Part shown: positions 3,937 to 58,239 of the stretch, in pieces
Numbering within the stretch: position 1 is the stretch's first letter
Layout of the letters: each line of letters starts with the position of its first letter
Assembly: GCA_964468545.1 (NCBI GenBank)
Contig: CAYXTT010000001.1
Location: 1,894 to 65,893 of the forward strand
Reading direction: 5' to 3'
Length of the DNA stretch: 64,000 nucleotides
From: Candidatus Woesearchaeota archaeon
Lineage (GTDB): Archaea; Nanobdellota; Nanobdellia; Pacearchaeales; GW2011-AR1
The notes under the pieces: model-generated
What the model was told of the DNA's origin: nothing
What the model saw: only the letters and a program-made list of their open reading frames with translations
The model's database searches: none
Program-made: the position numbers and the translations under genes

Positions 3937-4218
3937 ATGAGAGTAACAAAAATGGCAATTAAAAAAATAACAGAAAAAATCACAACCATAAAACTTCTGG
4001 AAGAAACAAAACTCCGAATCGAAAAACTCCGACAAAACAAAGGCGAATCCTACGACGACATTCTTAGAAAAATCCTCTACATCTTAAACACCGCGCGAGA
4101 CGAACCCGACAAAGCAAAACGAATTCTCGAAAAAATTTCCGAACTCCGACAACGAATGCTCGACGAGGAAAAACAACAGGAAGAAGATCTGAAAAAAGAA
4201 AACGGAAGAGAAGAGTAA
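3937..4218 (+). CDS. Small ribbon-helix-helix-like DNA-binding protein.
   Basis: 93 aa. TIKLLEETKLRIEKL...GESYDDILRKIL fits the strand-helix-helix pattern. It has a charged C-terminal tail. Confidence 0.35.
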   Translation: MRVTKMAIKKITEKITTIKLLEETKLRIEKLRQNKGESYDDILRKILYILNTARDEPDKAKRILEKISELRQRMLDEEKQQEEDLKKENGREE

Positions 4219-4485
4219 TGGACGAAGAACTTAATAGACGAAGAACTTAATGAAAAAATAACAGACAGAATAGATTCAGCAATAGCCAGAGCCCATCAAT
4301 TCTTACAAAGCTGCACCATCGAAGAATTAGTTAAAGAATCTATCAAATTAGGAGCAGCAAAAGAAAAATTAGAAACCATCAAAGAATACTTTGTGCCAAG
4401 ATTGTACGAAGAATTAAAAACAAAAATCAGCATCCTTGAAAAAAAATACCTCATAGAAGCACAATACCAAGATCGACAAAGATAA
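4218..4485 (+). pseudogene. Small hypothetical ORF disrupted by a 16-bp tandem duplication.
   Basis: ATG at 4218 overlaps the upstream stop (TAATG). The duplication GACGAAGAACTTAAT(A) at 4222-4252 shifts the frame; MDEELNRRRT* then terminates. Without one copy, a clean about 83-aa ORF reads through to the TAA at 4483-4485. Confidence 0.45.
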
Positions 4486-5310
4486 CTACAAACTCCCCCA
4501 CTCTCTCATCCCAACAACCGAATCTCCAACAGCGTCGGGACTTTCACATATCAAAACAACATCTTTATCTAACCCAGACAAAAATTCCAACACCTTCTTC
4601 CATTCAGACAAAGGCGTCACCAAATGTTTCTTCTCGCCCTTATCTCCAAACTCAATCCCTGAAAAATGCACGTGCCAATTCTTCAACTTGAAAACCTCTT
4701 CAATTTTCTCAAACTCATAATTTTTATAACGAGCCAAAACATGCGCAATATCAATACAAACCCCGCAACCCGTCTCGCGAACCAATCGCCCAACCTCGTC
4801 AATCGAACCAAAAACATTCACCTTCCCCATAACCTCCGGACACAATTCAACATCCCATTTATTTTCCTTCACAACTTCCATCATCTCAACCACCCCTTCC
4901 TTAATCTTCTGAAAATCCGCTTCCATCCATTCTGAATTCTGACACCTGACACCTGACACCTTATTCAAATTCTTTGAGTTTGAATAAAATCCCGGATGAA
5001 AAACAACCCGCTTCGCCCCGAGCCACGACGCAACCTCGCAACATTTCAAAATCCGAGCCCTCGACATCTCAACCTTCTTCTCTTCCTTCGAATTCAAATT
5101 AATCCAATATGGCGCATGCACCGACAAATAAATCCCCAACTTTTTCGCAACCCGACCAATTCTCAAAGCATCCTCTTTCTTTTTAATATAAATCCCATAA
5201 GTAAACAAAACCTCCGCCGCCCGAAAACCCAACTTATGATACATCTCCAAATTCGCAACCGCATCACCAACCGACCCAATCCCCGTCGGACCAAATCTTA
5301 TATTAGACAT
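4486..5310 (-). CDS. nfo: Endonuclease IV (AP endonuclease, xylose-isomerase-like TIM barrel).
   Basis: Motifs HAPYWINL, HPGFY and IDIAHV. 274 aa. It carries an in-frame repeat insertion, listed separately. Confidence 0.8.
   Translation of the reverse strand: MSNIRFGPTGIGSVGDAVANLEMYHKLGFRAAEVLFTYGIYIKKKEDALRIGRVAKKLGIYLSVHAPYWINLNSKEEKKVEMSRARILKCCEVASWLGAKRVVFHPGFYSNSKNLNKVSGVRCQNSEWMEADFQKIKEGVVEMMEVVKENKWDVELCPEVMGKVNVFGSIDEVGRLVRETGCGVCIDIAHVLARYKNYEFEKIEEVFKLKNWHVHFSGIEFGDKGEKKHLVTPLSEWKKVLEFLSGLDKDVVLICESPDAVGDSVVGMREWGSL
4939..4987 (+). repeat. (GACACCT)x3 tandem heptamer followed by a 9-bp-stem hairpin (TTATTCAAA-ttctttgag-TTTGAATAA). It is inserted in-frame inside nfo.
   Basis: Read directly from the sequence. 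On the coding strand it translates as ...NSKNLNKVSGVRCQNSEW... Confidence 0.8.
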
Positions 5311-15091: not shown

Positions 15092-15321
15092 ATTATATTA
15101 ATTAAAATTTAGGTTTTTAAAGATTGCGGTTGTGAAAAAAATTTTTAAAAAATAAAAAATAAAATTTACAATCACAAACCGGACAATCGAAAACCACATA
15201 ACTTTCATATCATCCGACGACAACTCTTAAAAAATTCACCACCAACTTATCCTAACATTACAATCGCGCACGAAGCGCGAAACACTCGCGAAAAAAATTT
15301 AACAACACTGTCCCCTCCCAC

Positions 15322-15392
15322 GCGAAACAAAATTTTGGGCGCAGATTGTCCGACGAAGTTGGACGACGCCATAGAAAAATTTTGTTTCGCAC
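15322..15392. other. Long hairpin in the 370-nt tuf-fusA spacer. A 15-bp stem, GCGAAACAAAATTTT...AAAATTTTGTTTCGC, encloses a 40-nt loop.
   Basis: The inverted repeat is read from the sequence. Nearby are a GCGAAAC triplicate, a CGCGC-acgaa-GCGCG hairpin, and the palindrome AGAGGATATCCTCT at 15441-15454 just downstream of the fusA stop. Confidence 0.4.
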
Positions 15393-15460
15393 TAAATACG
15401 AAATCGTAGATTTCGCTTAACCAAGGAGATACAGAGCCAAAGAGGATATCCTCTTAGGCC

Positions 15461-17632
15461 TTATTGATTCTCCGCCAACCCCTTCCGACTTCTAATCTGC
15501 TTAATCACTTTCGCCTGCAACTCCGACGGCAATCTCTTGAACGACTGCGACACCAATGATGAAACTCCTCGTCCCTCCGTCGCTGAACGCAAATCCGAAG
15601 TCCACCCAATCATCTCTTGAACTGGGAGCTCAGCCCGAATTATAATCCCGCTCTCATCCTGCTGAACATCAACCAATGTCCCCCTCTTCGTCGAAACCAA
15701 ACTCGTCACCGCCCCCATAAAATCCGTCGGCGCTTCAATCTGGTGAATCTGAACCGGCTCAAAAATCACAGGCGTCGCCTTCGCAAACGCTTCCTTAATC
15801 GCATCACGAACCGCCGGATAAACTTGCGCCGGCCCACGATGAATCGCGTCCTCATGCAACTTCATGTCAACAACCGAAACTTTCATCTTATGACACGGCT
15901 CCCTCGCCAACGGCCCCGCATCCATAACCTGCTCAAACGCATCCAGCAACAACTCAATCACTTCGCCAATCTGCACAATCCCCTTCGTCCTATCCAAAAA
16001 AATCGAACCCTTGTAAATATCCCTATACTGTTGCGCCTCATCCCTCGGTATACCAAGTTTAACCAGTGTCTCATCCAAAGTCTTGTCCTTCTTTTTCATC
16101 CTCCCCTTCGGCAAAATCCCGTCGGCAATCGCCGCAACAATCGACTCCTCCAACGGCTCAACTGTAACAAAAAAATCATTATGCTTATTCGGCGTTCTCC
16201 CGACAGCAACACCACTCGGCTTCACAACTGACTCACGAAAAACAACAATCGGCGGACCCATCTCAACCTCAAGCCCTTTCTCTGTCTTAATTCGATTTTC
16301 AATAATTTCCAAATGTAACTCGCCCATCCCAGAAATCAACGACTCCCCCGTCTCATCATTAATCTCAATCCTCAATCCCGGGTCCTCTTTCCCAACCTGT
16401 CTCAAAATCTCAATCAGCTTCGGCAAATCTGCAGTTCTCTTCGCCGCAATCGACTTCGTAACAACCGGTTCAAACAAATGACTAATCGCCTCGAACGGCT
16501 CAATCGGATTTCTCGAAATCGTCTCGCCAACGACAACATCTCTCAACCCGACAATCCCAACAATATTCCCAGCAACAACCTCATCTAACTGAACTCTCGA
16601 CGCACCTTTGTAAATCGAAACCTGTTGCGCCCGAACTTTCGTCCCCGCAATATTCATATACAACTCATCACCCTGTTTAATTTTCCCTCCAAACAATCTG
16701 CCACAAGCAACCTCCCCCGCGTGCGGATCAACCACAATCTTAATCGGCACAAACGCAACTTCACCGTCGATATTACAACTCCTCAAATCCTTCCCAACCT
16801 CTGAATTAATATCGCCATGCCAAATTTTCGGAATCCTATAATCCTGCGCCTGAACCGGGTCCGGATGATTCCTAATAACCATATTCAAAATAACCTCATG
16901 AATCGGCGCCCTCTTCGCCAACTCCTTATAATTCTCCCCACCCTTCTCATACGCTTCAATAATCTCCTTGAACGAAATCCCTTTCTTCTTCATATATGGA
17001 ATACTCAAAGCCCAATTATGAAACGCCGACCCAAACGCAACCGACCCATCACCGACGCCAACTTGCCACTTCTGCTTATAATCCGATTCCGCAATCTCCG
17101 CAATCAACTTGTTCACCGAATTAATAATATCGACAAATCTCTTCTGCATTTCCTCCGGCGTCAACTTAACCTCACGAATCAACCTATCAACTTTATTGAT
17201 AAACAAAATAGGCTTAACCCTCTCCTTCAACGCCTGTCTCAAAACCGTCTCCGTCTGCGGCATAATTCCCTCAGACGCACAACACAAAACAATCGCGCCA
17301 TCAACCGCCCTCATCGCTCTCGTAACATCCCCGCCAAAATCAACATGCCCAGGCGTATCAATCAAATTAATCAAATAATCCTGCCCCTCAAACTTATGGA
17401 CCATCGACACCGACGCTGAATCAATCGTAATCCCACGCTCCGCCTCATCCTCGTGAAAATCCAAAGTCCGCGCCTTCCCCGCCAACGCCTCCGACATCAT
17501 CCCAGCCCCCGCCAAAAGATTATCCGAAAACGTCGTCTTCCCGTGGTCAATGTGCGCGCAAATCGCAATATTCCGAATATGCTTCGGCTCATTCTGCAAT
17601 TCCTTAACTCTCGCCATCGTATCAACTGCCAT
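15461..17632 (-). CDS. fusA: Translation elongation factor 2 (aEF-2).
   Basis: AHIDHGKTT and the diphthamide region HEDAIHRGPAQV. 723 aa. Confidence 0.95.
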   Translation of the reverse strand: MAVDTMARVKELQNEPKHIRNIAICAHIDHGKTTFSDNLLAGAGMMSEALAGKARTLDFHEDEAERGITIDSASVSMVHKFEGQDYLINLIDTPGHVDFGGDVTRAMRAVDGAIVLCCASEGIMPQTETVLRQALKERVKPILFINKVDRLIREVKLTPEEMQKRFVDIINSVNKLIAEIAESDYKQKWQVGVGDGSVAFGSAFHNWALSIPYMKKKGISFKEIIEAYEKGGENYKELAKRAPIHEVILNMVIRNHPDPVQAQDYRIPKIWHGDINSEVGKDLRSCNIDGEVAFVPIKIVVDPHAGEVACGRLFGGKIKQGDELYMNIAGTKVRAQQVSIYKGASRVQLDEVVAGNIVGIVGLRDVVVGETISRNPIEPFEAISHLFEPVVTKSIAAKRTADLPKLIEILRQVGKEDPGLRIEINDETGESLISGMGELHLEIIENRIKTEKGLEVEMGPPIVVFRESVVKPSGVAVGRTPNKHNDFFVTVEPLEESIVAAIADGILPKGRMKKKDKTLDETLVKLGIPRDEAQQYRDIYKGSIFLDRTKGIVQIGEVIELLLDAFEQVMDAGPLAREPCHKMKVSVVDMKLHEDAIHRGPAQVYPAVRDAIKEAFAKATPVIFEPVQIHQIEAPTDFMGAVTSLVSTKRGTLVDVQQDESGIIIRAELPVQEMIGWTSDLRSATEGRGVSSLVSQSFKRLPSELQAKVIKQIRSRKGLAENQ

Positions 17633-17791
17633 CTTAACAAATAAAAAATTCAGTTTAAAAATCTTTGGTGAAATAAATTTATACTAACCAATTTTAATTT
17701 ATATCAATAAATTTCGCAGCGTAAAAATTTTCGTGGTGTACTAACATACATAAGGAGAATTTTACTAAGAAATAGTCAGCGAAAATCAAAA

Positions 17792-18409
17792 TTATCTTGC
17801 TGCATCAGCCGCCTTTTCCGAATCATTCCTCTTCGAAATCGCATAACTCTCGCCAGAATTCGCCGCCGCCAGCATCAACTCCTTCGCCAACGCCTCGACA
17901 ATCGTCGCCTTTTTATTAAACGCCTTGTCATAAGCCCCATTTACAAAATATCTCAAAACTAAATTCAATCTCCGTCGCGGAGAAACATCAACCGCCTGCG
18001 GATACTTCGCCCCCCCATATTCAATCGATGTAACCTCGTCCCGTGGCGCCGCATTCTCAATCGCCTTCACAAAAACCTTCAACGGATTCTCCCCCGTGCT
18101 CTTCTCTATAATCTTAAACGCATCAATCACAATCATCGTGCACCTCGTCTGCTTCCCACTAATCCACCCCGTAATAATCCTGTGCTTCTTCCCTCGACTT
18201 CCCGGCACTTGCAACAAATTAATCAATCTCTCGACGACATTAACCTTCGCCCTCGTCGGGTCCCACTTAATCCTCCCATGCGATTTCAACAACAACTTCG
18301 GCGACAAATTCACAACTTTCTTCAATCCCGGATCCTCAACTCGAACCTCTGACGCATCAAACAATCCAAAAACTTTCATCTCTACCATCAAAAAACCGAC
18401 CTCCCACAC
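17792..18409 (-). CDS. rps7: Ribosomal protein S7.
   Basis: KVFGLFDASEVRVEDPGLKKV... The true start is probably the internal MKVFG (about 18379). Confidence 0.9.
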   Translation of the reverse strand: MWEVGFLMVEMKVFGLFDASEVRVEDPGLKKVVNLSPKLLLKSHGRIKWDPTRAKVNVVERLINLLQVPGSRGKKHRIITGWISGKQTRCTMIVIDAFKIIEKSTGENPLKVFVKAIENAAPRDEVTSIEYGGAKYPQAVDVSPRRRLNLVLRYFVNGAYDKAFNKKATIVEALAKELMLAAANSGESYAISKRNDSEKAADAAR

Positions 18410-18593
18410 ACCATAGAATTCATTTTATTAGACTGTCCATATAGACAAATTTCTCGCTGACCCTTCATTTTATCTTCCTCTCTAATAATTGTCCTATTAA
18501 ATGGAGCACCGACGATATACTCAACACTCACAAGCGTATCATACCTTCCATTAAAACCATCCTTATTATCTCTTAACCATCTCAACTCCCATA

Positions 18594-18730
18594 AAAAATC
18601 CGTGTTAGTCCGTGTTAGTCTATGTGCTATTTTTTCTCCAGTTACACAAGTCACACCAAGCAACCCAAGTCGTGCGACAAGCGACAAGCGACAAGCGACA
18701 AGCGCAATGAAATTTCTCTGAAATTTCATC
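18594..18730 (+). repeat. Composite repeat element A in the S12-S7 spacer. It has a CGTGTTAGTC decamer block, an AGTTACACAAG segment, (GCGACAA)x4 and the hairpin ATGAAATTTC-tct-GAAATTTCAT.
   Basis: Tandem repeats and the inverted repeat are read directly. It shares its architecture and partial sequence with element B at 23433-23565. Confidence 0.8.
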
Positions 18731-19148
18731 GTCTCCCCTTCTCAATCTTCCCCATCCACAATCTATCCAATGGCTGGTCATTCACTTTAATTACTTGAAA
18801 TCTAATCCCAGACAAATCCCCTTTCGTCCGTCCCTGCTTTCCACCAATCCTCTCAACTACAACCTCGTCGTGCTCATCGATAAATGTCTGCGCCAAGTTC
18901 CCAGGAATAAACGCCGTAACTTCTTTCCCGTTCTTAATCAACTGCACCTTGCAACATTTCCTCATAGCTGAGTTCGGCTGCTTCGCCTCTTTCTGAACTT
19001 TCTTTATAACAATCCCCTTCGCCTGCGACGCTCGCCCAATCGGGTCAAATTTCAAACTAATCCCAAGCCGTTTCTTTTTATGCGGCAACTTATTATCACG
19101 AAACTTTTTCCTATCCTTCTTCAACTTCCGCCCGCTCATTATTCCCAT
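18726..19148 (-). CDS. rps12: Ribosomal protein S12.
   Basis: GIVIKKVQKEAKQPNSAMRKCCKVQLIKNGKEVTAFIPG. Confidence 0.95.
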   Translation of the reverse strand: MGIMSGRKLKKDRKKFRDNKLPHKKKRLGISLKFDPIGRASQAKGIVIKKVQKEAKQPNSAMRKCCKVQLIKNGKEVTAFIPGNLAQTFIDEHDEVVVERIGGKQGRTKGDLSGIRFQVIKVNDQPLDRLWMGKIEKGRR

Positions 19149-19229
19149 ATCATATCAAGTGAAAAATCCCTTTAAAAACTTTTAGCAAAAATTTTTGATG
19201 AAACATTTCAATATATCCTACAAATTTCC

Positions 19230-19655
19230 CTACACAATCTTCAACTTCGCAATCCCAAAAAAATTTTTCAAAACATCTCCCAATTCTTTTTCTCTCAATC
19301 GCCCTCGGCCAATCAACGCCGCCTTGCTTTGCCTACCAGCCGTAAGAACAACCGAATCCCCCCTCACTTCAATCTTATTAAAATCAACCGGCGCAACAAC
19401 ATCCTCGACAAATTTCCCAATCTCCTCGGAACTATCCACCAACGGCATCGCAACAACTTTAATCTTCCTCCGCAAAATCTCATTCAATCTCTTTACATTA
19501 ACCGCCCCTTTCCCGATAGCCAAAGAAACTTTAAATCTCGGAACCGCAAAAATAATTTGATTATTATAAACAAAAACCCGCTTCGTCTGAACTCGCGTCG
19601 TCCTCTCAAACAAATTAATATACCTCATCAACTGCATGTCAATCGTCCCTGCCAT
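19230..19655 (-). CDS. nusA: Archaeal NusA-like transcription termination factor (KH domains).
   Basis: 141 aa, with the KH GxxG pattern LAIGKGAVNVKRL. It occupies the conserved position between L30e and S12. Confidence 0.8.
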   Translation of the reverse strand: MAGTIDMQLMRYINLFERTTRVQTKRVFVYNNQIIFAVPRFKVSLAIGKGAVNVKRLNEILRRKIKVVAMPLVDSSEEIGKFVEDVVAPVDFNKIEVRGDSVVLTAGRQSKAALIGRGRLREKELGDVLKNFFGIAKLKIV

Positions 19656-19675
19656 TATAATCCCCTCCTAAAAAA

Positions 19676-19740
19676 TCCGCGTTCATCCACACTCCTTTTT
19701 CTTTAGCAATACAAAAAGTTACACACAAATAACAATCCAT
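19676..19740 (+). repeat. Degenerate copy of the decamer element (AAAAATCCGCGTTCATCCACACTCC...AGTTACACACAA) in the nusA-L30e spacer.
   Basis: About 70% similar to the heads of elements A and B. Confidence 0.4.
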
Positions 19741-19979
19741 CATTTCCTAACAGAAAAAACTTCACATTCAAAATCAAGATTTAATTCCTTGGCAACGTCT
19801 TCCTTCAACTTCAAAACATCAAATTCAATCTTCGCAGCCTCCAATTTCTCGACAATTTCATCTCGAGTATCTTTGCAAATAAAAACATTTTTCAACTTTT
19901 TCCCGCCCTTCAACGCCTGCCTCAACCCAAAAAAAACTTTCCCCCTTTCCATCGCTTCCGCCAAATCTTTTACACTCAT
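19740..19979 (-). CDS. rpl30e: Ribosomal protein L30e (L7Ae/L30e fold).
   Basis: GKVFFGLRQALKGGKKLKNVFIC. Conserved position downstream of rpoA. Its ATGA start overlaps the rpoA stop. Confidence 0.7.
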   Translation of the reverse strand: MSVKDLAEAMERGKVFFGLRQALKGGKKLKNVFICKDTRDEIVEKLEAAKIEFDVLKLKEDVAKELNLDFECEVFSVRK

Positions 19980-22900
19980 TTCTTTTTCTCCTTAACTTTA
20001 TTAGCCAAACTTCCTGTCACCTTAACCAACAACCCCGGCAATCCCGTCCCAACCGGAACCGGCTGATTCAAAATAATATTCTCAATCACCGACGCTAATT
20101 TATCTTTCTTCCCGGTTTTCGTCGCTTGAACAAATTGCTTGACTGGTGTTTCAAAAGATGCCCTCGCCAAAATCGAACTCTTGTCAGAAATAATTCCCAT
20201 TCTCGTAATCCCTTTCACTATCCCCGAACTAACCATCGTATCCGCAACCAACATCGCATGTTTACCATCAACCGCCAACCCCTGCGAACTAATTATTTTA
20301 TTAATTTCATTAATTATCAATTGTCGCGCCGCCTCAATCCCAAGAACACTCGCAACCTCATGAATATCATTACTCAAAACCTTATTGCCATCAACTCCCT
20401 TAAACGCCAGCACATCTTTAAGATTAGAACCCGCCGTCAAAATCACAAAATCTTTCCCCCTCTTGACAACCAAAACCTGAGAAATCTTTTTAACTCCAGT
20501 TAAAATAACCTCCTTAATTTTCTCTTTTGTTTTATAAATAGTTTTAAAATCTTCCTTCGTCATATCCAACACAAACCCATCAGACAATCTTTTCATACTA
20601 TAACCCTTTATCTTCAAAACCTCCACAACTTTTTCCAATCCAATATGCACCGACCTCAAAGCCTTCTCGTCAATATTAACTTTAATCTTCTTCGTCCCAA
20701 AATCAATACCAATGCCAGAAATAACCTCCTTCAACTTGACCTCTTTGATTTTCTCCGCAACAACCCTCGCATCCTTCTCATTATTGTGTTCTTTATCCAA
20801 CCAAATTTCCATCGACGGTGTTTTCGGCAATTTCCTCGCATCTAAAATTTCAATAATACGTGGCAATCCCTGCGTAACCTGCATCTCAGCAACACCAGCA
20901 GAATGGAAAACATTCAAAACCATTTGCGTCGATGCCTCGCCAAAACTCTGAGCAGTTACAACACCAATCGCTTCACCCGGAGCAACTTTCTTATTATTAT
21001 GCCTCTCTGAAATGTCAACTCCATCAACTCCATACACGAACTGAACAATATTATTAGAAGCATCCCTCACCGTCCCATCATAAGCCATAACTAAATCTTG
21101 CAACGCATTCGCCAACCTTCTATACAAATAACCCGACTTCGGCGTCCTCAACGCAACATCCATTAACCCATCTCTGCCAGTCATCGCACCAAAGAAAAAT
21201 TCATCAGGTCTAAACCCATCCATCAACGAACTATAAACAAACCCGCGCGCCCTCGGCGACAAATCATCCTTCCTGAAAAACGACAATGTTCTACCGGTAT
21301 ACCCAAAATCGATTCTCCTTCCATGCAAAACCTGTTGCCCAACCGAACACGCAATCTGTGTAATATTCAACATACTACCAGATGCCCCAGAACCAATCAT
21401 CTTACTCGCCAAATTATCCTTAGGAAAACCTTCCTTAACCGCGTCGCCGATCTCCGTTCTCGTTTCATTCAACACCTGCAAAATTTTTGTCTCTCTTGTT
21501 TCTTCCGCACTCTTTCCCGGCAACAAATCCAAACTTTTATTATAATAATTTTCTATAATCTCTTTCGTCTTCAACTCAGCAGATTCTATAATCTTCTCCG
21601 TTTTCTTCTTCACGGCGTCGGGAACATTCAAATCATCAGCCGAAAGCGTAAACCCCGTCCTCGACAAAAACACCGTCCCCAACATAAAAACCTGTCTCAA
21701 TAATTCCATAGTTTCATCTCGACCCAATTTTATATCCGCCGCCCTCAAAGCATCTCCCCGCCCAGTTTTAAAGCTCGTCGCATTAAACTTACCATTTTTA
21801 GAAGATATACCATGCGCAATCCCCACAACTTCCTTCGGCACAATCTTCTCAAAAATACTTATTCCCGAATTCATCTTATTTAAACCGCCAACCTTGATAC
21901 CCGATTCATACAATAACTGCGTCGCATCCTCTTTATTTAATTCCGACTCACTCAAAATAAAATTCCCAGAAACAGCATCCTTAACACACCCAATAAAATT
22001 CATATTATTTTTAGGAGAAAACAAATTAGCATTTACATTCAACAACAACTTCGCTTCAGCCCTCGCCTCCTCAGTTTGCGGCGCATGAATATTCATCTCG
22101 TCGCCATCAAAATCCGCGCCATAAGGACCACAAGTCGCCGGATGAATTCTAAAAGTTCTCCCGGGAATTATCTTGACAAAATGCGCCATCAACGAAGCCC
22201 GATGCAAAGAAGGATGCCTGTTAAACAAAACCACATCTCCGTCAACAAGATGCCTCTCAACAATATATCCCGTCTCCAGTTCTTCAACCAATTCCTCTCT
22301 CAAATCATCAGTAATCCTCTTCCTCTTCCCGTCAGACCGAATAATATAATTCGCGGCAGGATAACTCGTCTTAGCAACCAACGCCTTCATTCTCTTCATG
22401 TTCACACTCGTAACCCTCTCCGCAACCGTCAAAATTTTCGCAACTTCAATCGGTATACCAACCTCATTCAACTTCATATTAAGATCTGGCGAAATAACCG
22501 TCCTCGCAGAATAATTAACTCTTTTCCCTGCCAAGTTTTTCCTAATCCGACCTTCCTTCCCCTTAATCCTCTCGGTAATCGTTTTCAATGGCTGCCCACT
22601 CCTATGCCTCGCCGGCGGAATCTTCGCAATCGAATTATCAAAAAAAGTCGTAACATGATACTGCAACAAATCCCACAAGTCCTCGATAATAACTTCCGGC
22701 GCACCCGCATTCAAATTCTCCCACAACCTCTGATTCGACCTAATAATGTCCGACAACTTATGAGTCAAATCATCCTCTGACCTCTCTCCCGACTCCAAAG
22801 TAATCGACGGTCGCACAGTTACCGACGGCACCAACAACAAAGTCAAAATCGTACTCTCCGGTCTCAATGTCGCAGCATTAATCCCAAGAATTTTCAAATC

Positions 22901-23416
22901 CCCATCACTAACCTTAACCAATCTCTCTCTAATCTCCGACGGAAACAATCTCCTTCTCCCGCTCCTAAAAGTCGTCGGCTTCTCCAGCCTCACCCTTTCC
23001 TGAATAATCCCACAATGCGGACACCTCTTCCCGTCCTTCGCCTTCTTAATTCTCATTACTAACCCCTTCGACAAATCCTTCTCATCCTTAATCAAAACTT
23101 TCCCACACGCCTCACAAGTGCACCTCAAAACCAAATCAATAATTGGTAAATACTTAATATGAATCACCGGCCGCGCCAGCTCAATCATCCCAGGATGACC
23201 AAGACATTCTTTCAACCGCCCTCCGCAAGTCCGACACCTCACTCCCGGGTCAATCGCACCAAGTCGCAAATCCATCAAACCACCGTCGACAGGATATCCA
23301 TCAACATCATAAAGTTCCGGCGTCACAATCTTCGCAACCGATAATTTCTTAATCTGCTCCGGATTCAACAACTGAAACTCCATTCCCTTAACTTGCTTCT
23401 TCACCGGCCTATTCAT
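19976..23416 (-). CDS. rpoA: DNA-directed RNA polymerase subunit A, with the A' and A'' parts fused in one reading frame. The track start 23434 is a TTG; the first ATG gives MNRPVKKQVKGMEFQLL.
   Basis: The N-terminal Zn motif CRTCGG...C and the A' catalytic regions. The frame continues through GVDGVDISE...GEASTQMVLNVFHSAGV into A''-type C-terminal motifs (VDGKHAMLVADTM). Confidence 0.9.
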   Translation of the reverse strand: MNRPVKKQVKGMEFQLLNPEQIKKLSVAKIVTPELYDVDGYPVDGGLMDLRLGAIDPGVRCRTCGGRLKECLGHPGMIELARPVIHIKYLPIIDLVLRCTCEACGKVLIKDEKDLSKGLVMRIKKAKDGKRCPHCGIIQERVRLEKPTTFRSGRRRLFPSEIRERLVKVSDGDLKILGINAATLRPESTILTLLLVPSVTVRPSITLESGERSEDDLTHKLSDIIRSNQRLWENLNAGAPEVIIEDLWDLLQYHVTTFFDNSIAKIPPARHRSGQPLKTITERIKGKEGRIRKNLAGKRVNYSARTVISPDLNMKLNEVGIPIEVAKILTVAERVTSVNMKRMKALVAKTSYPAANYIIRSDGKRKRITDDLREELVEELETGYIVERHLVDGDVVLFNRHPSLHRASLMAHFVKIIPGRTFRIHPATCGPYGADFDGDEMNIHAPQTEEARAEAKLLLNVNANLFSPKNNMNFIGCVKDAVSGNFILSESELNKEDATQLLYESGIKVGGLNKMNSGISIFEKIVPKEVVGIAHGISSKNGKFNATSFKTGRGDALRAADIKLGRDETMELLRQVFMLGTVFLSRTGFTLSADDLNVPDAVKKKTEKIIESAELKTKEIIENYYNKSLDLLPGKSAEETRETKILQVLNETRTEIGDAVKEGFPKDNLASKMIGSGASGSMLNITQIACSVGQQVLHGRRIDFGYTGRTLSFFRKDDLSPRARGFVYSSLMDGFRPDEFFFGAMTGRDGLMDVALRTPKSGYLYRRLANALQDLVMAYDGTVRDASNNIVQFVYGVDGVDISERHNNKKVAPGEAIGVVTAQSFGEASTQMVLNVFHSAGVAEMQVTQGLPRIIEILDARKLPKTPSMEIWLDKEHNNEKDARVVAEKIKEVKLKEVISGIGIDFGTKKIKVNIDEKALRSVHIGLEKVVEVLKIKGYSMKRLSDGFVLDMTKEDFKTIYKTKEKIKEVILTGVKKISQVLVVKRGKDFVILTAGSNLKDVLAFKGVDGNKVLSNDIHEVASVLGIEAARQLIINEINKIISSQGLAVDGKHAMLVADTMVSSGIVKGITRMGIISDKSSILARASFETPVKQFVQATKTGKKDKLASVIENIILNQPVPVGTGLPGLLVKVTGSLANKVKEKKK

Positions 23417-23432
23417 CTTACCGCCCCCAAAC

Positions 23433-23565
23433 AAAATCCGTGTTCGTCCATGTTAGTCCGTGTACCATTATTTCCAAAACTATAAGTTACATCAAGTTGC
23501 CCAACTCCTCCGAATGCCGAATGCCGAATGCCGAATGCCGCGAATGAAATTTCCGATTTCATTCG
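23433..23565 (+). repeat. Composite repeat element B in the rpoB-rpoA spacer. It has the decamer block AAAATCCGTGTTCGTCCATGTTAGTCCGTGT, an AAGTTACATCAAGTTGCCC segment, (CCGAATG)x3.5 and the hairpin GAATGAAAT-ttccg-ATTTCATTC.
   Basis: Seen in the sequence. The 3' hairpin arm overlaps the last two rpoB codons. Confidence 0.8.
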
Positions 23566-26500: not shown

Positions 26501-26813
26501 CATCCTCGGTCTCAACCTGCCCCCCATAATTAATCGTCATCTCCATCCAAATCGGCGCCGAATAAGTCAAGCTCCTAAGTCTAACCTCCGCCGGCATAAC
26601 CAACCTCGAAGAACCATCCGCCTCGACAATATTGGGCTTCCCAACACGAATCTTCCCCAACTTAATTTCAAAATCATCCGTAGACAAAGAATCAGACAAC
26701 TCCGTCACAATCTCTTGCATCCTATTCTCAATAAAATCATTAAACGATTTTATATTCGACTCAACCAAAGAATGATTCTTCAAAAATTCTTTAACTAAAA
26801 TATGCTCAGTCAT
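23559..26813 (-). CDS. rpoB: DNA-directed RNA polymerase subunit B (unsplit).
   Basis: 1084 aa. Conserved RNAP beta regions, and a C-terminal Zn motif CTKCG...CSLC. Confidence 0.95.
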   Translation of the reverse strand: MTEHILVKEFLKNHSLVESNIKSFNDFIENRMQEIVTELSDSLSTDDFEIKLGKIRVGKPNIVEADGSSRLVMPAEVRLRSLTYSAPIWMEMTINYGGQVETEDVQLGRIPIMVKSGVCNLSGMSDEDLVKNYIDSRDHGGYFLINGNERVMVMAEDLASNQTFVEWQKTRNRLMLRLFSQRGAYKIPVSLVESPYGILEVSFSRFRDIPAIVLLKALGLISDADIVKFIGKQTDGLVVNLYEFAGIGSVNDALMWIAEKSSLQGTNKEMLDRVKQRIDSYFLPHIGLDKASRMEKARTLCKFIKQFYIARENPSAAMTDKDHYANKRVRLSGDLLSDLFRVNINILLREVQHTLQKTMKRRKFYSIKTIAKSTLFTHRVESAIATGSWIGERSGVTQNMDKNNSFAVMSQLQRVTSTLPGEQENFAARTVHPTHYGRFCPIETPEGTEIGLRKNLALLARISTRTTIEYENVLRVLKDSGMRDVEGAVDVFYNGRFIGAVDDVDGFVGKVRNFRREGRLPFEVSVRFDRFLDTVFISSEIGRVIRPLIVVEDGVSRLKNEHLELVKSGVLTWEGLFEKGILEYLDAAEEDDCYICLDEKDLTKEHTHLEVDAIDIFGVSVSLIPFGDHDPPARMVKGGSRAYRQGLGIYAGNFPVRIDTDVSLLHYPQKPLVRSFIYDTLDVHPVGQNVVLAVMPYEGYNMEDATVLNGGSVDRGFGRSSRFRPYTSVELNYAGGLKDEITIPNKDVSGYRLEENYRFLEDDGIVFPEAEMVEGEVVIGKVSPPKFLSEAREISIQTKKENSSAIRQEETGIVDAVFVTQDQEGNMVVHVRTRELRIPEIGDKFSVPHGQKGILGMIAPECDVPFTISGIRPDIMFNPHGIPSRMTVGYLMDVLAGKVAALSGRIVDASAFSGEKIDSLENNLKKLGFRENGKEVMYNGITGQRMPVKIFIGNMFYLKLKYMVADKMHSRASGKIALLTRQPIEGRARGGALRLGEMEQEALVGHGASLLLKERYDSDKVVINICTKCGAIVIDDQIHNKKVCSLCHSNQVEPVEVSYAFKLLIEELQGLHLLTKFELKNKYE

Positions 26814-26832
26814 TTTTCACCTCTTTAAAAAA

Positions 26833-26892
26833 CGACCAGCGACCAGCGACCAGCGACCAGCGATATGAAAAAATCAAAGATCTTTTCATATT
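26833..26892 (+). repeat. Mini-element E in the rpoH-rpoB spacer. (CGACCAG)x4 is followed by the hairpin ATATGAAAA-(11 nt)-TTTTCATAT.
   Basis: Seen in the sequence. It lies between the rpoH stop and the rpoB Shine-Dalgarno GAGGTGA. Confidence 0.8.
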
Positions 26893-31786: not shown

Positions 31787-32578
31787 TCAAACCCTAACCC
31801 CAACTTCCTCAAAATAATCCGCTATACTCTTTCTCAACTCCTTCAAAAATTCCTCACTCACATCTTTCTCGTCGACAAAAGAAGAATCAACAAACTTACC
31901 CTTATTCTTAAACCCCTGCAAAAAAAACCTCCTCGGCTTTCCCCTACAAACCTCATTTATCCACCTCGCCATCTCAACGACACTCTCCTTTGAATGCAAC
32001 CGCCCAACAACCGTCGTTCTAAACTCATAACCCCTGCTAAAATCCGTGTTAGTCCGTGTTAGTCCGTGTGCTAAATTTAATTCCTTATCAAGTTGTCCAA
32101 AATCATAAATCATCTTCATCGACCTTTCCACCGACGACAAATCAACGCTAACGCCAACAATTTTGGAATAATCCTCACGACAACCCTTAACATCCATCGC
32201 AACATAATCCACCAATCCTTCGTCAATCAACTCTTTAAGCCGAGAAGGAAACGACCCATTCGTATCAATCTTCACCTTAAACCCCATCTCTTTTACCCGA
32301 CGAACAAAATCAAAATCCAAACTCATCAACGGCTCACCCCCACTAATACAAACCCCATCCAACTTTCCAACTCGACTCTTTAAAAAATTCAAAACCTCTT
32401 TTTCTGCGAATTGCGAATTGCTAATTGCTAATTGCGCATCAACGGAGTTGACGAGTTCCGGATTATGACAAAACCCACAACGAAAATTACACCCGCACAA
32501 AAAAACAACACAACAAATTTCCTCCGGATAATCAATCGTCGAAACCTTTTGCAACCCAGCAATTTTCATTCTCCACAT
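31787..32578 (-). CDS. nrdG: Anaerobic ribonucleotide reductase activating protein (radical SAM). It carries two in-frame repeat insertions.
   Basis: CGCNFRCGFCHNPE radical-SAM cluster motif. The heptamer repeat encodes AQLAISNSQFA and the decamer repeat encodes GLTRTNTDF. Confidence 0.8.
   Translation of the reverse strand: MWRMKIAGLQKVSTIDYPEEICCVVFLCGCNFRCGFCHNPELVNSVDAQLAISNSQFAEKEVLNFLKSRVGKLDGVCISGGEPLMSLDFDFVRRVKEMGFKVKIDTNGSFPSRLKELIDEGLVDYVAMDVKGCREDYSKIVGVSVDLSSVERSMKMIYDFGQLDKELNLAHGLTRTNTDFSRGYEFRTTVVGRLHSKESVVEMARWINEVCRGKPRRFFLQGFKNKGKFVDSSFVDEKDVSEEFLKELRKSIADYFEEVGVRV
32041..32072 (+). repeat. (TCCGTGTTAG)x3 decamer block (AATCCGTGTTAGTCCGTGTTAGTCCGTGTGCTA), in-frame inside nrdG.
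   Basis: It is identical in type to the heads of elements A, B and D. An AAGTTGTCC segment follows, as in element B. Confidence 0.8.
32406..32451 (+). repeat. (GCGAATT)x2(GCTAATT)x2 heptamer block plus a short hairpin TCAAC-gga-GTTGA, in-frame inside nrdG.
   Basis: Seen in the sequence. Confidence 0.75.
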
Positions 32579-35240: not shown

Positions 35241-35277
35241 TTTATTTTTCCCTATCCCAAACCGCCAAGTCCCGATA

Positions 35278-35305
35278 CACCGCCAACCCGAAGAAACTCA
35301 AACTC
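35278..35305 (-). terminator. Hairpin GAAACTCAA-actcat-TTGAGTTTC immediately downstream of the nrdR stop.
   Basis: A 9-bp inverted repeat. An adjacent 18-nt direct repeat (AGTCCCGATACACCGCC) is also found inside the nrdR 3' end. Confidence 0.4.
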
Positions 35306-35744
35306 ATTTGAGTTTCTTTATCTCCTCCTTAAAATCATCAATATCCCCAAAGTCCCGATACACCGCCGCAAACCGAATATACGCAACCTTGTCAATCTTC
35401 TTCAGCTTATTCATAACCATCTCGCCAATCTGCGAACTTTTGATATCCTTCCCCTTCGCAACCCGATAAACATTCGCCTCAATATCATCAACGACCCCAT
35501 CTATCTCCTCACTCGTAAACGGCCGCTTCTGCAAATTCTTGTCAACCCCAACAAACAACTTCTCCCGCAAAAACTTTTCCCGACGCCCATCCTTCTTAAT
35601 AACATTCAAATCCAACTCGACTCGCTCATACGTCGTAAACCGCTTCCCACATTTCAAACACTCCCTTCTCCGACGAGTCACAGAATCACAATCACGCTTA
35701 TCCGTCACCTTCGTCTCAACAGCAGTACAATATGGACACCTCAT
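35304..35744 (-). CDS. nrdR: NrdR transcriptional repressor (Zn ribbon plus ATP-cone).
   Basis: MRCPYCTAVETKVTDKR...CLKCGKRFTTYE and the ATP-cone VIKKDGRREKF. Confidence 0.85.
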   Translation of the reverse strand: MRCPYCTAVETKVTDKRDCDSVTRRRRECLKCGKRFTTYERVELDLNVIKKDGRREKFLREKLFVGVDKNLQKRPFTSEEIDGVVDDIEANVYRVAKGKDIKSSQIGEMVMNKLKKIDKVAYIRFAAVYRDFGDIDDFKEEIKKLK

Positions 35745-39881: not shown

Positions 39882-40697
39882 CTACAAACACTCAAAAATA
39901 TTACACGCACTACAAACACTCCCACTCGCCGGCTCCCCACACTTCTCACACTTCCCCAACTCTCTTTCATCAACACTCAAATTCAAATTCAAAAATTCTT
40001 CAACAATTTTCAACTTCTCAGCGTCGCTAATCACCTTCATCCAATCCCGAGTCTCAACCCGATAAGTCCCAAACGCACACGGACACTTATTATACAAAAT
40101 ATCAAACTTCTTCATCTTAGCAAACTTCCTAATCTCCGACTCCGGCACAAAAAACAACGGCTTAACTCGTTGCACAAATCCACTGACACCTGACACCTGA
40201 CACCTGACACCTGTTTTTGGCGCACTCCTCGCGCCCAAAAACAAATTGCCTTTCAAGAAATTCATCAAAACATTCTGACATTCATCGTCGAGATTATGCC
40301 CCGTCACCAACTTATCAGCCCCGAGCTTCCGAGCCCACCGATTCAAAACCCACCGCTTCACCGTCCCACAAACCGAACACCCAGTCAACCCTTTCTTCTT
40401 TTTCAAAACCGCCTTAATAAAACAAATTCCCTGCCCCAACTCCGCCTTCAAATCAACAATCGTCAACCGAACCCCAATCTCCCCACAAAATTTCTCCATA
40501 TTCTTATTATGAACCCTAGACCACTCGCCAAGTCCCAAGTCAATCATCAACCCAGAAACATCGTAACCCAACTTCTTCAAAATATACAACACCGACGTCG
40601 AATCCTTCCCACCCGACAACGCCACAACAACTTTGTCCGACTTTTCCAACAACTCATACTTCCCAATCGTCTCCACAACTTTCTTTTCAACATCCAT
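39882..40697 (-). CDS. PP-loop ATPase of the TtcA/TtuA/NcsA tRNA-thiolation family. It carries an in-frame repeat insertion.
   Basis: PP-loop SGGKDS, then CSVCG and a C-terminal CEKCG...CSAC. The insertion encodes LFLGARSAPKTGVRCQVSGVSG. Confidence 0.7.
   Translation of the reverse strand: MDVEKKVVETIGKYELLEKSDKVVVALSGGKDSTSVLYILKKLGYDVSGLMIDLGLGEWSRVHNKNMEKFCGEIGVRLTIVDLKAELGQGICFIKAVLKKKKGLTGCSVCGTVKRWVLNRWARKLGADKLVTGHNLDDECQNVLMNFLKGNLFLGARSAPKTGVRCQVSGVSGFVQRVKPLFFVPESEIRKFAKMKKFDILYNKCPCAFGTYRVETRDWMKVISDAEKLKIVEEFLNLNLSVDERELGKCEKCGEPASGSVCSACNIFECL
40183..40243 (+). repeat. (GACACCT)x4 tandem heptamer plus the imperfect hairpin TGTTTTTGGCGC-actcct-CGCGCCCAAAAACA, in-frame inside the PP-loop ATPase gene.
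   Basis: Seen in the sequence. It uses the same heptamer as the nfo insertion at 4939-4960. Confidence 0.8.
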
Positions 40698-52937: not shown

Positions 52938-53028
52938 ATACAAGATTTACAAATCAATAGTTTTTAAGATTAATTGCACCTGGGATTAGTATGATTGTAG
53001 AAAAAATTTCGCTTCAAAAAAAATCCGT

Positions 53029-53058
53029 GTTAGTCTGTGTTAGTCCGTGTGCTATTTC
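53029..53058 (+). repeat. Decamer element D (AAAATCCGTGTTAGTCTGTGTTAGTCCGTGTGCTATTT) in the tRNA-Cys/tRNA-Arg spacer.
   Basis: Same family as 18594, 23433 and 32041. A partial tRNA-Cys T-arm copy (TTGCACCTGGGAT) lies at 52971-52988. Confidence 0.8.
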
Positions 53059-53082
53059 TCTAAAAACAGATTACTAACTCAA

Positions 53083-53157
53083 CGCTCCCGACAGGATTTG
53101 AACCTGCGACTTTTAGCTTAGAAGGCTAACACTCTATCCAGGCTGAGTTACGGGAGC
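53083..53157 (-). tRNA. tRNA-Arg (anticodon TCT).
   Basis: The reverse complement has acceptor GCTCCCG/CGGGAGC, D-arm ACTC...GAGT, anticodon stem TTAGC/GCTAA with loop CTTCTAA, and T-loop TTCAAAT. Confidence 0.8.
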
Positions 53158-53230
53158 ACAAGATTAGTTAATTATCCCAATTTAAAAGTTTATTGACAAA
53201 GAATAAAAACTCTACTTTTCTTAAGATACC

Positions 53231-58148: not shown

Positions 58149-58239
58149 ACACTCCCACTTCTCAATTCCTCAATCACCGACAAACAAAACAATCGACGAA
58201 CAAAACAATCGACGAACTCAAAACATAAAATTTCTAATC

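Follow-up and report, generated by a model that had tools for sequence, protein, structure and literature searches.

The 64,000-nucleotide (nt) stretch of DNA analysed here (the window; contig CAYXTT010000001.1, positions 1,894 to 65,893) comes from an uncultured DPANN archaeon of the Pacearchaeota/Woesearchaeota ("Nanoarchaeota") group, the labels borne by its nearest species-level genomes, and holds, in archaeal gene order, rpoH, rpoB, rpoA, L30e, NusA, S12, S7, EF-2 and EF-1a. Most genes of the window are carried by the minus strand, so that the sense strand is the reverse complement of the window. Our subject is the spacer between the genes for ribosomal proteins S12 and S7. S7 starts at ATG 18388 and not at GTG 18409, as its homologues align from residue 1, and the spacer is therefore 18389-18725, or 337 nt. 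A single open reading frame (ORF) of 113 codons fills this gap exactly, with an ATG (18727-18729) that overlaps the S12 stop codon (ATGA) and a TGA that overlaps the S7 ATG (TGATG); at 0.083 stops per off-frame codon on the sense strand, the chance of a frame of this length staying open is 5.6e-5. Comparison with relatives showed the spacer to be a bridge, apparently kept in a translated frame, that joins a repeat mosaic to a small gene, and whose modules lie at stop/start junctions, are specific to the sense strand and are confined to one clade.

Read along the sense strand from the S12 end, the mosaic (element A) consists of a hairpin, a perfect array of a 7-nt unit, a semi-conserved segment that we call M, and a block of CACGGA-containing 10-mers followed by a U tract, after which the small gene begins (Table 1). 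On the plus strand, the block reads as TCCGTGTTAG x2.2, perfect at 18599-18620, with a third, degenerate unit to 18628. An earlier note on this DNA had listed the 10-mer block, the heptamer array, here counted as (GCGACAA)x4.4, and the 10-bp hairpin, and these parts are indeed present far above chance. The 17-mer TCCGTGTTAGTCCGTGT, with at most three mismatches allowed, gave 8 matches against 0.05 expected, and perfect arrays of period 5-20 with at least three copies number five in the window, all of them heptamers, compared with 0-1 per shuffle. An artefact or planted sequence was ruled out, as the spacer is base-for-base identical across five independent public assemblies and is thus natural sequence. 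More broadly, six assemblies from different samples (4-20 kb each, covering none to three of the arrays and compared as consensus sequences only; the shortest, L006, ends at S12) matched the window with 99.8-100% identity and zero gaps.

The part of the spacer next to S7, which the earlier note had taken for an AT-rich leader, is a protein-coding gene. The C-terminal 69 residues of the bridge ORF are homologous to an ORF of 69 aa that stands alone at this site in L007, the closest species, with a ratio of nonsynonymous to synonymous substitution rates (dN/dS) of 0.34 at a synonymous divergence (pS) of 0.56; S12 and S7 of that species are each 96% identical to those of the window, with dN/dS of 0.014 and 0.043, respectively. 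Judged by this purifying dN/dS, the approximately 200 nt ahead of S7 are a real, fast-evolving small protein gene under purifying selection. In L007 and L012 the small gene has its own Shine-Dalgarno sequence (SD) and ATG (GGAGGGTTGATGTGATG), which in the window have been lost, with the gene fused in frame to the upstream bridge. The 113-aa ORF is an ORFan, matching only itself among 5.8 billion proteins and matching no Pfam family, and L007 holds the one diverged relative of its C-terminal part.

It is very improbable that these 113 residues are a genuine two-part protein, in which the repeat-encoded N-terminal 45 residues would have a function of their own, acting for instance as a signal or membrane segment. 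In favour, the ORF was called in every assembly and has a hydrophobic N-terminus (MKFQRNFIALVACRLSLVARLGLLGVTC), and the motif LG..G.[ST]C..G[EK] is common, in the same frame, to the window, L007 and L012. However, in the latter two species the repeats encode an ORF of their own that ends in GGLM and a stop, in L221 only S7 follows it, and the version of L007 is charged and not signal-like. Synonymous sites are not favoured among the substitutions, the nucleotide block is also found downstream of a tRNA gene, where it is non-coding, and in L012 all three 10-mer units have changed together (CGCGGACTTG), pointing to constraint or copying at the nucleotide level; the missing homologues and Pfam family also count against such a protein.

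The composite recurs, as the earlier note had proposed on the strength of element B, which occupies the rpoB-rpoA' junction and repeats the order of parts with a different heptamer and hairpin. Partial copies occur elsewhere, including two further junction elements in the window, the second of which carries a bridge ORF that ends beside the downstream ATG (35240). Bridge ORFs run across all junction elements: those of the window have 113, 49, 27 and 21 codons, with a joint chance of about 4e-6 at the stop frequency given above, and those of relatives have 62 aa (L007), 54 aa (L012), 35 aa (L015), 27 aa (L007, rpoH-rpoB) and 114 aa (L087, rpoB-rpoA'). The ancestral junctions are stop/start overlaps of the form TGATG, TAATG or TAAAATG (TGATG for rpoH-rpoB in L008 and L013), and the start motif is duplicated at both ends of the insert. 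Flanking duplications range from 4 to about 42 nt; in L222, 14 codons of S7 are duplicated ahead of a further repeat insert.

What did not survive closer comparison is the idea of the composite as one unit, since only M and the CACGGA block are homologous between copies, the hairpins and heptamers being built from local sequence. This bears on the possibility that the composite is a mobile element, similar to a miniature inverted-repeat transposable element (MITE) or to the in-frame palindromic elements of Rickettsia, that was transposed into the S12-S7 and rpoB-rpoA' junctions. Several copies in 64 kb, partial ones included, start-codon duplications that resemble target-site duplications, and one in-frame copy inside a gene would fit such an element, but no terminal inverted repeats bound the composite and no transposase was seen; the modules occur independently, with site-specific hairpin and array sequences, the copies are orthologous between species and not polymorphic, and the flanking duplications have no fixed length. 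We find this origin hard to credit.

Table 1. Features of the junction elements, their in-gene counterparts and the neighbouring genes, with coordinates in the window
Feature	Coordinates	Strand	Remarks
Ribosomal protein S12 gene	18726..19148	-	140 aa; PF00164; stop TGA 18726-18728
Hairpin A, ATGAAATTTC aga GAAATTTCAT	18707..18729	-	perfect 10-bp stem, 3-nt loop (tct on plus strand)
Element A array, sense (TTGTCGC)x4.4; plus strand (GCGACAA)x4.4	18674..18704	-	perfect heptamer array, 31 nt; begins right at 3' end of hairpin A
Element A M segment, ACGACTTGGGTTGCTTGGTGTGACTTGTGTAACTGGAGAAAAAATAGCA	18629..18673	-	semi-conserved with S12-S7 (A-site) copies of L007, L012, L221 and L222; partly with element B
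Element A CACGGA block, CATAGACTAA CACGGACTAA CACGGA, then U6 tract	18593..18628	-	conserved core of the dispersed family; 49.1 bits, E 7e-14
Bridge ORF	18388..18729	-	113 codons + stop; called as gene in five assemblies
Small-protein coding part	18391..18597	-	ORF residues 45-113; homologous to separate 69-aa ORF of L007
Ribosomal protein S7 gene	17792..18388	-	198 aa; ATG at 18388
Element B, rpoB-rpoA'	23413..23565	-	same part order as element A; 49-codon ORF spans 23413-23562
Element B hairpin, CGAATGAAAT/ATTTCATTCG	23541-23565	-	encloses rpoB stop and an ATG
Element B array, sense (CATTCGG)x4.4; plus strand CCGAATG x4.4	23510-23540	-	heptamer array
Element B M segment	23464-23509	-	
Element B CACGGA block	23437-23463	-	followed by U/G tract, SD and rpoA' ATG at 23416
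rpoH-rpoB junction element	26806..26891	-	27-codon ORF across, ending inside rpoB start region
rpoH-rpoB hairpin	26863-26891	-	encloses rpoH stop 26886-26888 and an ATG
rpoH-rpoB array, sense (TCGCTGG)x4.4; plus strand (CGACCAG)x4.4	26833-26863	-	
Further junction element	35242..35318	-	12-bp hairpin 35291-35318 enclosing upstream stop and ATG, then degenerate 16-17-nt tandem pair
In-gene copy, PP-loop ATPase gene	40183..40245	-	11-bp hairpin with one bulge, then (GGTGTCA)x4.4 translated in frame
In-gene copy, AP-endonuclease-2-like gene	4939..4987	-	9-bp hairpin, (GGTGTCA)x3.3, then TCAGAAT x2
In-gene heptamer array (GCAATT[AC])x4.6, NrdG-type activase gene	32405..32436	-	not in L087 ortholog, net +18 nt
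In-gene CACGGA block, NrdG-type activase gene	32038..32078	-	read ...LAHGLTRTNTDF; 37/37 against ortholog copy
Stand-alone CACGGA block + U8	53016..53061	-	about 30 nt downstream of tRNA-Arg (53082-53158); 52 bits
Degenerate block remnant, GAACGCGGATTTTTT	19669..19688	-	upstream of NusA SD and start; E 0.026; L007 has full four-unit block there

Hairpin A had been placed directly after the S12 stop, in a terminator-like position. The stop codon in fact lies within the 5' arm, and the ATG of the bridge ORF is enclosed with it. A terminator was ruled out by the AT-rich stem (one G-C pair in ten), the absence of a T tail and a bacterial-type terminator scan of 17600-19400, in which the hairpin was not called. 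At every junction the stem holds the upstream stop and mostly also the overlapping ATG; at the S7-EF2 and rpoB-rpoA' junctions of L221 the stem contains or touches the stop alone. Hairpins of this kind enclose the stops of S12, rpoB, rpoH and the gene ending at 35304 in the window, and five junctions of L221 have a hairpin that contains the upstream stop. The S12-site stem of L007, L012 and L221 is CGATAAAATG/CATTTTATCG, with three different loops, and that of L015 is a variant with one compensated pair. The hairpins at the six or more sites are otherwise unrelated in sequence, and relatives carry different ones at an equivalent site, the 3' arm always being the reverse complement of the species' own gene end.

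Each array begins at the last base of its hairpin and is 23-39 nt long. Between species, array position and length are conserved while the unit changes: the rpoH-rpoB array is TCGCTGG x4.4 in the window, TTTCACT x5.6 in L007 and of GGTGTCA type in L221, the S12-site units measure 7, about 19/38, 8, 16 and 16 nt across species, and the PP-loop ATPase gene has (GGTGTCA)x4.4 in the window versus (TGGGAGAGGA)x2.9 and another hairpin in its ortholog. The unit of element B, CATTCGG, takes up the sequence in which its hairpin arm ends (CATTCG), itself the reverse complement of the rpoB end CGAATG. GGTGTCA occurs at three loci in two species, two of them in the window, the other units being site-specific. 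In the AP-endonuclease gene, the 7-nt period is common to the window and L221, with the first three units identical in the window and degenerate in L221 (GGTTTCA GGTGTCA GGATTCA), a comparison that indicates homogenisation within arrays. Perfect arrays are limited to a narrow clade. Unit number did not vary among the six assemblies at the consensus level, and this constant length, together with the essential host genes, ruled out a contingency-locus or phase-variation reading.

Longer-unit tandem arrays were also seen in the window, namely a 16-mer x2.5 (58178-58217, in an intergenic stretch that also holds (GTTTTT)x3.5), a 16-mer x2.2 (4216-4251) and a 21-mer x2.5 (2638-2689). L007 has a 400-nt NusA-S12 insert, not found in the window, with (GGGGAGGGGATTTTGGAAC)x5.9 (L007 9699-9809; rich in G-runs and possibly prone to form G-quadruplexes) and several UUCG-type mini-hairpins; a second copy of the GGGGAGGGGATTTTGGAAC array lies at a contig end (L087 1-66).

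Several copies lie inside genes, where comparison with homologues indicates that they are insertions into variable loops; heptamer arrays accompanied by hairpins occur in three of these genes (4939-4987, 32405-32436 and 40183-40245). The copy in the AP-endonuclease-2-like gene inserts about 12 aa that homologues do not have. NrdG activases of the base form (232-234 aa) have nothing between DFG and EFRTT, where many relatives have peptides resembling "TRTNTDEH", which are the translated CACGGA block.

The only dispersed sequence family is thus M together with the (CACGGACTAA)x2.7/U-tract block, the hairpins and heptamers being non-homologous between copies. Searching about 357 kb of DNA from the clade with a sequence model of this family gave 19 copies, every one of them on the sense strand. 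The block is always trailed by T4-T8 (U6 in element A, U4 in element B, U8 in the copy near tRNA-Arg), and at seven junctions the start codon follows its last GGA by 23-29 nt, with the U tract and SD between; the cistrons downstream are S7, rpoA', NusA, the NrdG activase and ORFans. The NrdG copy is identical at 37/37 positions between the window and L087, in flanks of about 85% identity with pS of 0.42-0.57. Compared in this way, the block is evidently constrained in sequence at the nucleotide level, and the hairpins and arrays appear constrained only in kind and position.

A related pattern, ACGGA-N5-ACGGA-N5-ACGGATTT, was seen in at least 120 metagenome contigs (L089-L208) and in 12 viral contigs (L209-L220). 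The metagenome contigs have a GC content of 0.31-0.67 and are mostly bacterial-looking, and their motif, with the consensus ttTAaCC-ACGGATgrAC-ACGGATgaAC-ACGGATTTt, is often trailed by its own inverted copy or by other A/C/G-rich blocks with a 10-nt period. We found no paper on this motif, and 18 of its loci gave only spurious miRNA-hairpin matches against Rfam.

The T4-T8 tracts raise the possibility that block and U tract mark a transcript 3' end (as an oligo-U terminator or attenuator of archaeal type) or a site of RNA processing, such that division of the long rpo/str unit would tune the amounts of its cistrons and the hairpin would protect the upstream 3' end. Copies do lie at true transcription-unit ends, after tRNA-Arg in the window and after EF-2, before the EF-1a promoter, in L007, and many instances of the motif in bacterial-looking contigs lie 0-30 nt past a same-strand ORF, by crude ORF calls that are noisy at high GC. 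Nevertheless, for most clade copies an essential cistron (rpoA', S7 or NusA) follows at 23-29 nt without an intervening promoter, and efficient termination there would be lethal; the NrdG copy is within a coding sequence; and the hairpin lies upstream of the block, away from the U tract, with the bacterial-type terminator scan negative. Weighing these points, we judge a 3'-end role decidedly unlikely.

The earlier note had also regarded the spacer as an insertion between normally adjacent genes. Among 77 species-level relatives, the S12-S7 gap ranges from about 0 to 1025 nt, measuring at most 40 nt in 26, 41-150 nt in 6 and more than 150 nt in 45 (median of this class, 267 nt). The spacer of the window is derived, with the two genes contiguous in 5 of the 12 closest species (about -2 to 2 nt, with TAATG-type junctions) and in 26 of the 77, but with 45 of the 77 more than 150 nt apart they are not normally adjacent. 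Long gaps hold one to three small ORFs, usually starting at the S12 stop and almost all mutually unrelated; ten such spacer ORFs of relatives had no Pfam match. The junction resembles a hot spot where new small genes are carried along by a highly expressed operon. The repeat mosaic occurs at this site only in a sub-clade made up of the window, L007, L012, L015, L221 and L222. Long spacers without repeats, which the earlier note thought would mark the spacer as ancestral, do exist in relatives (L009-L011 and L016, with ORFs and no mosaic), but they are not homologous to that of the window. L221, conversely, has a hairpin, a degenerate array, M, CACGGACTAA x2.7, an SD and S7 within 147 nt and no ORF, so mosaic and ORF are two separable components of the spacer.

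Relatives were also noted to have accessory genes within the rpo/str operon or beside it. Among them are an NTase/HEPN pair that separates S7 from EF-2, a ParE-like toxin pair, two small ORFs that occupy an S7-EF2 spacer of 730 nt, and a four-helix protein resembling 23S_rRNA_IVP/bAvd that is encoded between NusA and S12 (loci L223 650-2075, L221 17684-18116, L007 11420-12130 and L222 608-970).

The explanation that we favour, tentatively and with not quite even confidence, is that the mosaic would be a portable junction and translation-initiation module, kept free of stops so that translation stays coupled, with hairpins and arrays that would arise from local inverted and tandem duplication. 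According to this model, a ribosome ending S12 would melt the stem and restart at the ATGA overlap, read through the mosaic and the small protein and pass to S7 at TGATG, such that translational coupling within the str operon would survive the insertion. The hairpin may ensure that only ribosomes fresh from termination initiate at the ATGA overlap. A portable translation-initiation region would be made up of the block, the U tract and the SD, in which the block is probably a standby or binding platform for the ribosome or for a candidate factor. An inverted copy of the stop/start flank would give rise to the hairpin and tandem copying in 7-nt steps to the array, after which arrays would evolve in concert and in-gene copies would persist when the frame is kept.

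Several observations weigh against this model. No cistron follows the copies of the block behind tRNA-Arg (window) and EF-2 (L007), and another copy lies within the NrdG coding sequence. All stems are perfect Watson-Crick palindromes without G-U pairs, a better fit to a recent origin at the DNA level than to a long-selected RNA helix, and folding the sense strand of elements A and B and the antisense strand of A gave nothing significant beyond the hairpin (z -0.8, +0.85). The open frames, moreover, could be a mere filter that lets neutral insertions survive in essential operons.

These points lead to the main alternative, possible but somewhat unlikely, that the elements have no cis function and are neutral by-products of lineage-specific mutation, that is, inverted and tandem duplications that survive where frames and coupling stay intact, produced for example by snap-back or template-switch synthesis or by slippage in replication or break repair. 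Such an origin is consistent with the perfect palindromic hairpins built from local flank, with array units that are unrelated between sites and species, with the presence of arrays inside housekeeping genes in loops that are variable among homologues, and with the confinement of perfect arrays to a narrow clade; the tandem repeats of Borgs offer a precedent for genome-specific repeat formation (PMC9879509). It accounts poorly for the CACGGA block, which is far more conserved than neutral sites (37/37), stands at a set distance from start codons and is strictly on the sense strand, and equally for hairpins that at least five species have retained or rebuilt at the same stop codons, for array positions and lengths conserved across species and for zero length polymorphism among the six assemblies.

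We rate the combination as a new form of interspersed mosaic repeats, no description of the combination having been found. Our literature search returned nothing linking DPANN or Pacearchaeota with such repeats and nothing containing the motif strings; an Rfam 15 gathering scan of the window gave only tRNAs, and 18300-18800 gave nothing with an E-value below 4. The closest counterparts in form are the repetitive extragenic palindromes (REPs) of enterobacteria and the bacterial interspersed mosaic elements (BIMEs) that they compose: short modules in variable mosaics at cistron junctions within operons, with hairpins near stop codons, for which roles in mRNA stability and in the translation of neighbouring cistrons have been proposed. 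The elements described here are likewise mosaics, of hairpin, array, M and block, at intercistronic sites, either full (A and B) or partial. REP palindromes, however, are one conserved sequence shared by copies, whereas each hairpin here is unlike the others and draws on its own flank; three ORFs contain copies, and the junction copies are spanned by ORFs, in place of a strictly extragenic location; and the host is an archaeon in which no RAYT-type transposase was seen.

Rickettsia palindromic elements (RPEs) are conserved palindromes of about 100-150 bp inserted in frame into genes. Repeat DNA is here also tolerated in genes as translated loop residues (NrdG activase, PP-loop ATPase, AP endonuclease), but the in-gene pieces are either a 40-nt non-palindromic block or a hairpin and array of site-specific sequence. 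In E. coli, the S7 translational operator is a cis element of the S12-S7 intercistronic region that controls the coupled translation of S7 and downstream genes. It occupies the same operon position as element A; the CACGGA block, however, also precedes rpoA', NusA, the NrdG activase and ORFans, and is hence not specific to S7. The CsrA/RsmE binding-site consensus is A/U-CA-N-GGA-N-G-U/A, and the bacterial-type metagenome motif ACACGGAUGA, repeated every 10 nt, fits it, unlike the archaeal units (CACGGACUAA), which have no G after GGAN; no CsrA is known from archaea.

The arrays themselves most resemble the perfect tandem repeats of Borgs, archaeal replicons with nearly all genes on one strand, in which perfect head-to-tail units, genic and intergenic, never break ORFs and are mostly locus-unique and genome-specific, with fast turnover between relatives (PMC9879509). 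The Borg criteria include genic units divisible by three and a repeat region of at least 50 nt (PMC9879509), and also variation in unit number within a population. The window shares with Borgs perfect head-to-tail arrays of at least three copies (five of them), genic as well as intergenic positions, mostly locus-specific units, intact ORFs, quick turnover between relatives and genes mostly on one strand. It differs in the 7-nt unit and the array length of 23-39 nt, below the 50-nt threshold, in the hairpin that each array abuts, in the recurrence of GGTGTCA at three loci in two species and in the lack of copy-number variation among six assemblies, which are consensus sequences.

The sense strand is strongly C-poor (C 11.5%, G 28.4%, T 35%, A 25%), and GC skew on the plus strand is -0.2 to -0.65 over all 64 kb. 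This extreme strand asymmetry extends across the window (1-64000), and the negative skew continues at 53-57 kb despite plus-strand genes there. RpoA is one 1146-aa ORF with Rpb1 domains 1-5 and no separate A' and A'' genes (19976-23416), and RpoB is likewise unsplit, at 1084 aa. The 370-nt EF-2 to EF-1a spacer (15092-15460) is dense in nested inverted repeats, such as GCGAAACAAAATTTT...AAAATTTTGTTTCGC and, just past the EF-2 stop, AAGAGGATATCCTCTT; its stretch GTTAGGATAAGTTGGTGGTGAATTTTTT... is conserved with L007, which instead carries a four-unit CGGA block at the position.

A more far-reaching and rather unlikely possibility is that stop-codon hairpin, 7-nt array and CACGGAx3/U-tract make up an undescribed class of sense-strand junction elements, read by a dedicated trans factor or by the ribosome to couple or gate translation in genome-reduced DPANN archaea, and written or refreshed by genome-specific copying in 7-nt steps. 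If so, the presence of the CACGGA-N4 core in a wider, uncurated motif family of bacterial and viral contigs would suggest a recognition system that is either ancient or shared by horizontal transfer.

A minimal archaeal genome appears able to absorb repeats and ORFans in its most conserved operons (rpoH-B-A and S12-S7-EF2) without losing translational coupling, the inserts being retained as bridge ORFs with overlapping stop and start codons. These inserts may offer a natural set of "portable" initiation regions and stop-codon hairpins, relevant to the poorly understood coupled translation of archaea. Arrays that stay at fixed positions while their unit changes between species of 93-96% protein identity would be a compact case of concerted evolution, and possibly reflect a repeat-writing activity like that suspected in Borgs. 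For annotation, bridge ORFs and in-gene insertions of the "TRTNTD" type should be recognised as translated repeat DNA.

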